Below are positions 1,265 through 1,775 of a DNA stretch of 64,000 bases, in pieces. The stretch lies in NCBI GenBank assembly GCA_964016885.1, contig OZ024743.1, positions 102,424,001 to 102,488,000 on the forward strand, given 5' to 3'. The first letter of the stretch is position 1; each line of letters opens with the position of its first letter. Both the position numbers and the translations under genes were made by a program. The stretch is from Eledone cirrhosa (taxonomy: Eukaryota). The notes below the pieces were generated by a model. The model worked only from the letters and a program-made list of their open reading frames with translations. It searched no databases and was not told where the DNA came from.

Positions 1265-1416
1265 TAGTATTTCAGTATACATATATGGATGTACATCTTT
1301 AACTTAATTGTTTAAGCGTCAGTCATACAAAAGTGAGTTACAAACGAAACGAAATTTAATTTCGTTTCGTTATTTGTTTTTATCGTCTCCGTTGAACCGG
1401 TACTTACTCACACTCT

Positions 1417-1424
1417 ATGCAAAT
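1417..1424 (+). promoter_or_regulatory. Octamer motif ATGCAAAT, candidate snRNA-type promoter element
   Basis: Exact octamer 100 nt upstream of the HHR core, followed by TAATTTTCATA; both motifs conserved in the diverged copy (60706-60713, minus). Confidence 0.4.
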
Positions 1425-1509
1425 TGGTCTGCCCACTACTAATTTTCATAGAAAAAGCTTATAACGATATGTGCTTTTACGATTCTCTAGAGAGGCCGGA
1501 AGATAGGTA

Positions 1510-1554
1510 AATATTGCTGATGAGTTGTAACAACAACGAAACTAGTTCAATATT
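1510..1554 (+). ncRNA. Minimal type I hammerhead ribozyme
   Basis: aatattg-CTGATGA-gttg(taacaa)caac-GAAA-ctag-TT-caatatt: perfect 7-bp stem I, 4-bp stem II, palindromic stem III (AACTAGTT). Confidence 0.88.
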
Positions 1555-1775
1555 CCTTGTCTGGCTTTCTGGAGAATAGAGGAAAGGTGTTTCCTCAAAA
1601 ACCAGTATGACTCTAAAAACCGGTTTGTCTGTGTGTTTACATACAGAATAGCTGGCCACTCACAGTAAAGTGACCAGTGAAAAAACTTGGTACATCTACA
1701 TATGTATACGTGTGTGTATTCATATACATACTAGTATTTCAGTATACATATATGGATGTACATCTTTAACTTAAT

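Follow-up and report, generated by a model that had tools for sequence, protein, structure and literature searches.

Non-LTR retrozymes have been described in coral, mussel, and axolotl, with Penelope-like elements (PLEs) proposed as their partners (PMC7229834), and the transcription of animal retrozymes and the enzyme that inserts them are stated to be open questions in the available text of three accounts (PMC7229834, PMC7761336, 10.64898/2026.07.22.740005). PLEs are known for an insertion layout in which an inverted 5' copy is accompanied by a tail at one end (10.1101/2021.04.23.441226, PMC3846280), and a PLE protein in purified form nicks both strands and extends them, its two internal start sites marking the limits of the tail (PMC11167929). 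Here, we analyze two copies, A and B, of a family found in a 64,000-nucleotide stretch of the Eledone cirrhosa genome (the window), whose features are collected in Table 1. The family is a non-LTR retrozyme of animals and belongs to a known class: each unit has a type I hammerhead, the short non-coding units occur in dispersed arrays of <1 up to about 31 units, an LTR layout is absent from the mapped loci, and target duplications exceed 4 bp where visible. It is real, young, and abundant, and its interest lies in the junction evidence and a candidate promoter more than in the ribozyme. Our preferred reading, with a probability of roughly 0.7, is that this high-copy, non-coding, tandem hammerhead retroelement is predicted to self-cleave, is likely circularized, and is likely copied into (TA)n by a PLE reverse transcriptase/endonuclease.

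Table 1. Features of retrozyme copies A and B, in window positions
Feature	Position	Strand	Remarks
Retrozyme copy A (subfamily A1)	1265..1775	+	467-bp monomer + 44 nt
Left flank of A, (TA)n-rich	532..1264	.	
Right flank of A, (TA)n-rich	1777..2800	.	
3'-end site 1	1309..1314	+	229-234 nt past cut; inferred reverse-transcription start; at 1314, loose contig ends run into (TA)n
One-sided tail, ~70 nt, site 1 to site 2	1315..1383	+	site 2 at 1383, right after T5 run
Predicted branched stem-loop across site 2	1333..1411	+	shape kept in B; candidate RT-binding element
12-mer like upstream element of host U6/U6atac/MRP/tRNA-Sec	1416..1427	+	11/12 here; also 5' arm of predicted RNA hairpin
TATA-like box	1460..1465	+	44 bp after 12-mer; predicted start about 1489-1494
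Type I hammerhead of A	1495..1566	+	extended stem I; predicted cut after 1547 (GUU)
Retrozyme copy B	60247..61159	-	~1.8 monomers; 3' end at site 2, adjoining (TA)n
Second hammerhead of B	60577..60647	-	predicted cut after 60595 (GUA); U.U at 10.1/11.1
12-mer (60714-60703) and TATA box (from 60671) of B	60666..60714	-	43 bp apart
First hammerhead of B	61053..61123	-	predicted cut after 61071 (GUA)
Inverted second arm at 5' end of B, 27 nt	61133..61159	+	truncated, stops short of site 1

Copies A and B are homologous across the whole unit, as the initial annotation had proposed. Their monomers align globally with 305 of 512 columns identical and a score of 157, against a mean of -88 and a maximum of -36 in 300 dinucleotide shuffles, and five of the six blocks of the alignment are significant individually. 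The proposed monomer counts likewise held: copy A has a period of 467 and an exact 44-nt terminal repeat, which makes 1.09 monomers, and copy B has a period of 476, which makes ~1.8, with a 30-nt microsatellite duplication in its second unit. Coding potential is absent, as claimed (the longest ATG ORF of A has 30 aa, and a 133-aa frame in B is mostly microsatellite). Both copies had also been placed in (TA)n, which is correct for A and only partly so for B, where (TA)n adjoins the 3' end and non-TA sequence lies beyond the 27-nt inverted copy at the 5' end. Similarly, the view that the ends fall at differing points of the monomer describes the scattered 5' ends but not the 3' ends, which occupy two fixed sites; copy A, which contains a single hammerhead, has a random 5' end and ends 3' at site 1, and B ends at the homolog of site 2. 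Matches to Rfam miRNAs in the window were dismissed as microsatellite noise.

The hammerhead of A is made up of the core CUGAUGA (1517-1523), stem II (1524-1537), and GAAA (1538-1541). Cores and predicted cut sites in both copies lie where they had been reported, and a further cut site is predicted in the first hammerhead of B. Stem I is extended and bulged in both A and B, and helix III has 2 bp within a palindromic ACUAGU, so that the earlier term "minimal" suits helix III but not stem I. An Rfam HH9 match at 1499-1570 (37.7 bits, E 6e-6) is sub-threshold, the gathering score being 52. Of the compensatory stem changes first described, three stem II pairs do change on both sides, but the first comparison of the two stems was shifted by one base. 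Correctly aligned, stem II of A has 5 bp with a G-C closing pair and the loop AACA, and that of B has 4 bp under the U.U at 10.1/11.1. Family B is therefore without the canonical G10.1-C11.1 pair, an autonomous PLE family of the same genome likewise has U.U at 10.1/11.1, and the cut-site triplet is GUU in A1 and GUC in A3. The missing canonical pair and the GUU triplet both count against the preferred reading.

Covariation was assessed in 17 variants picked as subfamily representatives from the 104 seen. In these, 91.9% of cells are paired, against 31-47% in slid controls. Changes on both sides occur at 8 of 22 hammerhead pairs, a count that is not above the shuffle control (257/500), and the 17 variants form two main lineages and hence represent few independent changes. 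The monomer fold has a z of -10.4. Collectively, these results support the hammerhead-bearing, tandem, non-autonomous retrozyme-type family that had been put forward, with covariation consistent with a maintained ribozyme, and the hammerhead RNA is predicted to self-cleave. A search for U6-retrozyme chimeras joined at the cut site found none. Exact matches in the 3.0-Gb genome number 8,867 for the A-type hammerhead pattern and 10,394 for the B-type core, with 0 for the reversed-pattern control in each case, and the best genomic matches of family A reach 98-100% identity.

The 3' ends of the family are not what randomly permuted templates, the copying mode first suggested, would leave. The 3' ends of family-A insertions lie either 223-235 nt or 299-304 nt past the cut and with few exceptions adjoin (TA)n, and contig loose ends fall at 1383 (site 2) as well as at site 1. 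Across the genome, site 2 meets (TA)n in 2,222 exact junctions, and site 1 gives 176 when the A1 variant and the forward strand alone are counted, compared with one junction locus at a control monomer position. Both outer ends are visible in 69 two-armed, head-to-head insertions of family A. In 63 of these (19/20, 15/18, and 29/31 in three batches) each site receives one arm, in none do both arms end at the same site, and the remaining six are truncated or interrupted; the third batch excludes a single duplicate, two run-offs, and a further 19 loci in which no second arm was mapped. The same two-site pattern was judged by eye in about 18 family-B loci. One arm per site, with a spacing of ~70 nt, amounts to the "tail" signature of PLEs, and the insertions combine an inverted 5' arm and one-sided tail with a (TA)n or AT-rich target, as expected of a PLE-mobilized element. 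The 5' ends, in a hand-compiled list of 172 that may include a few duplicates, are spread across the monomer, with no significant pile-up at the predicted transcription start (11 vs 9.6 expected).

How the second arm arises can be read from individual loci. In L274 the arms cover phases 238-303 and 177-234, and in L266 phases 261-303 and 212-230, without overlap in either case, and the longer arm can be either one. Since these arms have no sequence in common and either may be the longer, neither was copied from the other, and each was likely primed separately on RNA. The same facts weigh against a scheme in which a single priming is followed by fold-back self-priming and endonuclease resolution, yielding the inverted arm and the tail. 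Self-priming has been proposed for PLEs (PMC3846280), with the tail ascribed to endonuclease resolution (10.1101/2021.04.23.441226), and it would suit both the locus haplotype common to both arms in four of five young loci and certain central junctions that lie within hairpins; with two start sites also observed directly in vitro (PMC11167929), we nevertheless consider it very improbable. Returning to separate priming, we infer that one complex primes both target ends at two non-equivalent sites that flank a stem-loop of conserved shape. Arm lengths range from 10 nt to many units, central junctions overlap by 1-8 nt in 19 of 32 cases (a count inflated by alignment ends), and target duplications of 10-12 bp were seen at two non-TA sites. 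A search of the mapped loci for empty sites found no paralog. Separately, a family-B insertion within a Hydra-type ORF (L066 / L071) is bordered by (TA)n at either end, and its left flank recurs on the right as an inverted copy of ~28 nt, which raises the possibility that some (TA)n is added at insertion.

The PLEs of the window have the same two-armed layout as the retrozyme, with tails of about 57, 80, and 150 nt. One way in which the initial annotation could have failed was for all copies to be solo pLTRs of an autonomous PLE ORF; among 156 loci checked, none sits so. A PLE ORF adjoins a retrozyme copy without a (TA)n break in two of these loci, both explained as insertions. One, L038, where a PLE ORF ends directly before an old copy, was rejected as a pLTR because 19 sibling PLE copies have no post-stop retrozyme match beyond microsatellite level, and the other is a retrozyme insertion in mid-ORF. 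Their rarity, and the thousands of dispersed insertions with junctions of their own, leave little room for the view that an autonomous PLE gave rise to the copies, as remnants of its pLTR or as satellites derived from it, and that they spread along with it or through unequal crossing over, without a retroelement life of their own. That view draws on Xenopus, where 24 of 57 retrozyme families match known elements, nearly all of them PLEs, at pLTRs (10.64898/2026.07.22.740005), and on the many PLE families of this genome, which were sampled in part; we give it very little weight. Comparison of the site and ribozyme regions of the retrozyme with six pLTR regions of five families revealed no similarity apart from the hammerhead core, and a partial sampling of PLEs comprising 60 GIY-YIG loci and one further family gave no pLTR homology. 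The sole similarity to one PLE family, family Y, is the hammerhead core itself. No autonomous partner emerged from this sampling, a point against the preferred reading. Trans-mobilization through structure alone is possible. In four cases (L041, L082, L035, and L049), a retrozyme arm is joined head to head with an arm of an autonomous PLE family. These cross-family joins were considered as clues to a partner and set aside, as they involve four different PLE families and two of the four have one end of each type, so that none is indicated.

Several other elements of the window and genome were recorded. A Neptune-type PLE (window 19633-26594) is two-armed in (TA)n with identical arms of 2,443 bp and a one-sided tail of about 57 nt; its open frame at 22258-26094 (1,278 codons) contains RT, a CX4CxxC linker, and GIY-YIG, and it has its own hammerhead motif at 26396. 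Two Hydra-type PLEs (2801-13926 and 29066-32240), both two-armed and with a CxCX5C linker, have minus-strand frames at 6437-8929 and 30364-31608 and tails of about 150 and 80 nt, which exceed the published 30-40. Pfam gave no match for the three window PLE ORFs, which were assigned by motifs. A short non-coding two-armed element in (TA)n at 34420-34780 has a CUGAUGA...GAAA motif on each arm and would be another PLE-type end or a non-autonomous family. Fragments of two further PLE families lie at 56917-57522 and 15369-17800, the former family having many genomic copies with a 784-codon open frame. Elsewhere, at a site unique genome-wide (L199 / L347; G000:C10:48072667-48072786), the 3' end of a U6 retrocopy is joined to PLE family Y exactly at the predicted hammerhead cut; this single case suggests that family Y RNA is cleaved in vivo and undergoes ligation of the RtcB type.

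Directly upstream of the ribozyme, both A and B have a 12-mer followed by a TATA-like box, and the predicted start coincides with the 5' edge of the ribozyme. The 12-mer matches 12/12 in A2, A3, B, and old C, and the mismatch in the young A1 subfamily falls at a position that is invariant in host genes; the chance rate in shuffled monomers is 0.0005-0.0025. In the host, it occurs at -77 to -80 in three distinct U6 loci, U6atac (the best-scoring of 10 matches), MRP, and both tRNA-Sec genes, all with TATA at -30/-31, and it is missing at that place from 14 retrocopy-like U6 copies, 8 U1, 5 U2, RNase P, and 7SK. Spacing differs: the 12-mer and TATA are 43-44 bp apart in the retrozyme, against 47-49 in all eight motif-bearing host upstreams, and are thus 4-5 bp too close. 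Both motifs also lie inside predicted RNA hairpins. Past the predicted start, A1, B, and old C first reach a T4+ run at site 2, and A3 has one run before it; the scarcity of T4 runs within the predicted transcript does not exceed chance (shuffle fractions 0.08-0.73). No promoter-like motif precedes the first hammerhead of B, because that copy is truncated at its 5' end. The short spacing, the hairpins, the A1 mismatch, the lack of the 12-mer upstream of host RNase P and 7SK, the chance-level T4 runs, and the absence of a 5'-end pile-up at the predicted start all weigh against a promoter, and we put the odds that the 12-mer and TATA act as one at about even. In the upstream loci compared (L186-L209, L238, L336, L346, L348-L358, L420-L422, and L429), host small-RNA genes seem to fall into two sets: U1, U2, RNase P, and 7SK have a TCAGT-containing motif near -60, and U6, U6atac, MRP, and tRNA-Sec have the octamer-like 12-mer near -78. 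The comparison supplies candidate Pol III promoters for Eledone cirrhosa.

The nature of the RNA template was considered from arrays and haplotypes. One array has 21 monomers, all identical, and together with the haplotypes shared between arms it fits a single-unit template. The 15-unit and 31-unit arrays contain quasi-periodic variants, which fit post-insertion local duplication, multimeric templates, or rolling circle equally. Alternatively, PLEs may insert linear, uncleaved read-through array RNA made by host or Pol II transcription, with the ribozyme kept for another step, circles a by-product or absent, long arrays grown after insertion, and the 12-mer serving as a hairpin arm only. In vitro, the ribozyme is dispensable for PLE insertion and unprocessed RNA is the main substrate (PMC11167929), and a review has retrozymes seemingly lacking promoters (PMC7761336); the heterogeneity of long arrays, the displaced promoter spacing, and a mild overrepresentation of 5' ends immediately past the cut (17 vs 7 among the 172 ends, p 0.06, not significant) point in the same direction. 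However, homogeneous haplotypes across arms and the 21 identical units suggest a single-unit bottleneck, circles are abundant for the coral, mussel, and axolotl retrozymes (PMC7229834), and chance is an unlikely source of a 12/12 match with a Pol III element of the host, and on balance we regard a linear template as unlikely. Back-junction reads cannot discriminate circles, because tandem DNA copies contain the same junction. The 1731-to-1265 joint is present in contigs of three low-depth runs of the four examined, and was set aside because tandem DNA gives it too. Near-identical family-A sequence also appears at low depth in runs X4, X5, and X6, labeled as three other organisms, and relatives, diet, or contamination are possible sources.

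A model of the life cycle is proposed along the lines of the preferred reading, with cleavage and circularization. The RNA would start 47-59 nt upstream of the cut, at about even odds from a U6-type Pol III promoter inside the unit, and transcriptional read-through into the next unit would give an RNA with two ribozymes. Cleavage would then free a unit-length RNA, as structure, covariation, and other retrozymes suggest, possibly as a dimer, given that helix III is a 2-bp palindrome, and a host RtcB-type ligase would close it. The target ends would be primed separately at site 1 and site 2, flanking the conserved stem-loop, presumably by a PLE enzyme and leaving the DNA footprints that we observe. 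The two copies are joined head to head, which gives the palindromic insertions seen in the genome, with their one-sided ~70-nt tail and, where visible, a 10-12-bp target duplication. Both window copies are likely dead ends, since neither has a promoter motif followed by two ribozymes. The most specific form of the model, a U6-type Pol III promoter inside the retrozyme unit combined with a Penelope protein dimer that primes both target ends on one RNA circle at two fixed, non-equivalent sites, is tentative, and we lean somewhat against its being correct in full. If true, ribozyme cutting and circularization would place the promoter within the copied unit; U6 retrocopies of this genome have lost the external promoter, as is normal upon retrotransposition. 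The element would then be a U6-promoter "SINE of Penelope," and PLE integration geometry would be an asymmetric twin priming.

More broadly, the junctions link a retrozyme directly to Penelope-type integration, and the strict assignment of one arm to each site limits how PLE integration itself can proceed. How retrozymes are transcribed and which enzyme inserts them should both be testable in vitro, given that the sites on the 467-nt RNA are mapped and that the genome has a young subfamily of near-identical copies as well as intact PLE ORFs. Among the top search results, which included few subscription papers, none dealt with a cephalopod retrozyme, tail or twin-arm signatures of a retrozyme, or a U6-type promoter in one. 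Internal promoters have a precedent in the schistosome hammerhead repeat, whose promoter is tRNA-like. Schistosome hammerhead SINE-like repeats and newt satellite 2 likewise have an internal promoter followed by a hammerhead (PMC6765202 and PMC2220036, in secondary accounts), an order that makes tandem units necessary for propagation. According to those accounts, the newt promoter is of snRNA type and served by Pol II and the schistosome promoter is served by Pol III, whereas the retrozyme match is to the host U6/MRP-type upstream element plus TATA.

In sum, the family resembles the metazoan non-LTR retrozymes (PMC7229834) in its low-GC, non-coding tandem units, type I hammerhead with weak helix III, thousands of copies, highly paired fold, and target duplications of >4 bp. 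It differs in unit size, 465-470 bp and larger here against about 170-400 nt, and in its fixed two-site 3' ends, head-to-head arms, and candidate promoter, which are not described for those elements in the available text of that study. It shares several features with EN+ PLEs (Poseidon PAc; Neptune, Hydra, and Naiad): one arm is inverted at the 5' end, the tail is one-sided, two internal start sites lie at a stem-loop with a hammerhead upstream of them, insertion targets (TA)n, and the duplications of the target are close to 10 bp. Unlike them, the retrozyme has no ORF and no pLTR homology to those sampled, and its tail of 60-74 nt compares with 30-40 published for PLEs and about 57-150 for those of the window. 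Vertebrate non-LTR retrozymes have been interpreted as PLE derivatives (10.64898/2026.07.22.740005), and both studies arrive at the same conclusion, that of non-autonomous PLE partners; the vertebrate case, as set out in the available part of that work, rests on co-occurrence and pLTR homology, whereas in Eledone cirrhosa such homology was not found among the pLTRs sampled and the case is made by the structure of the junctions.
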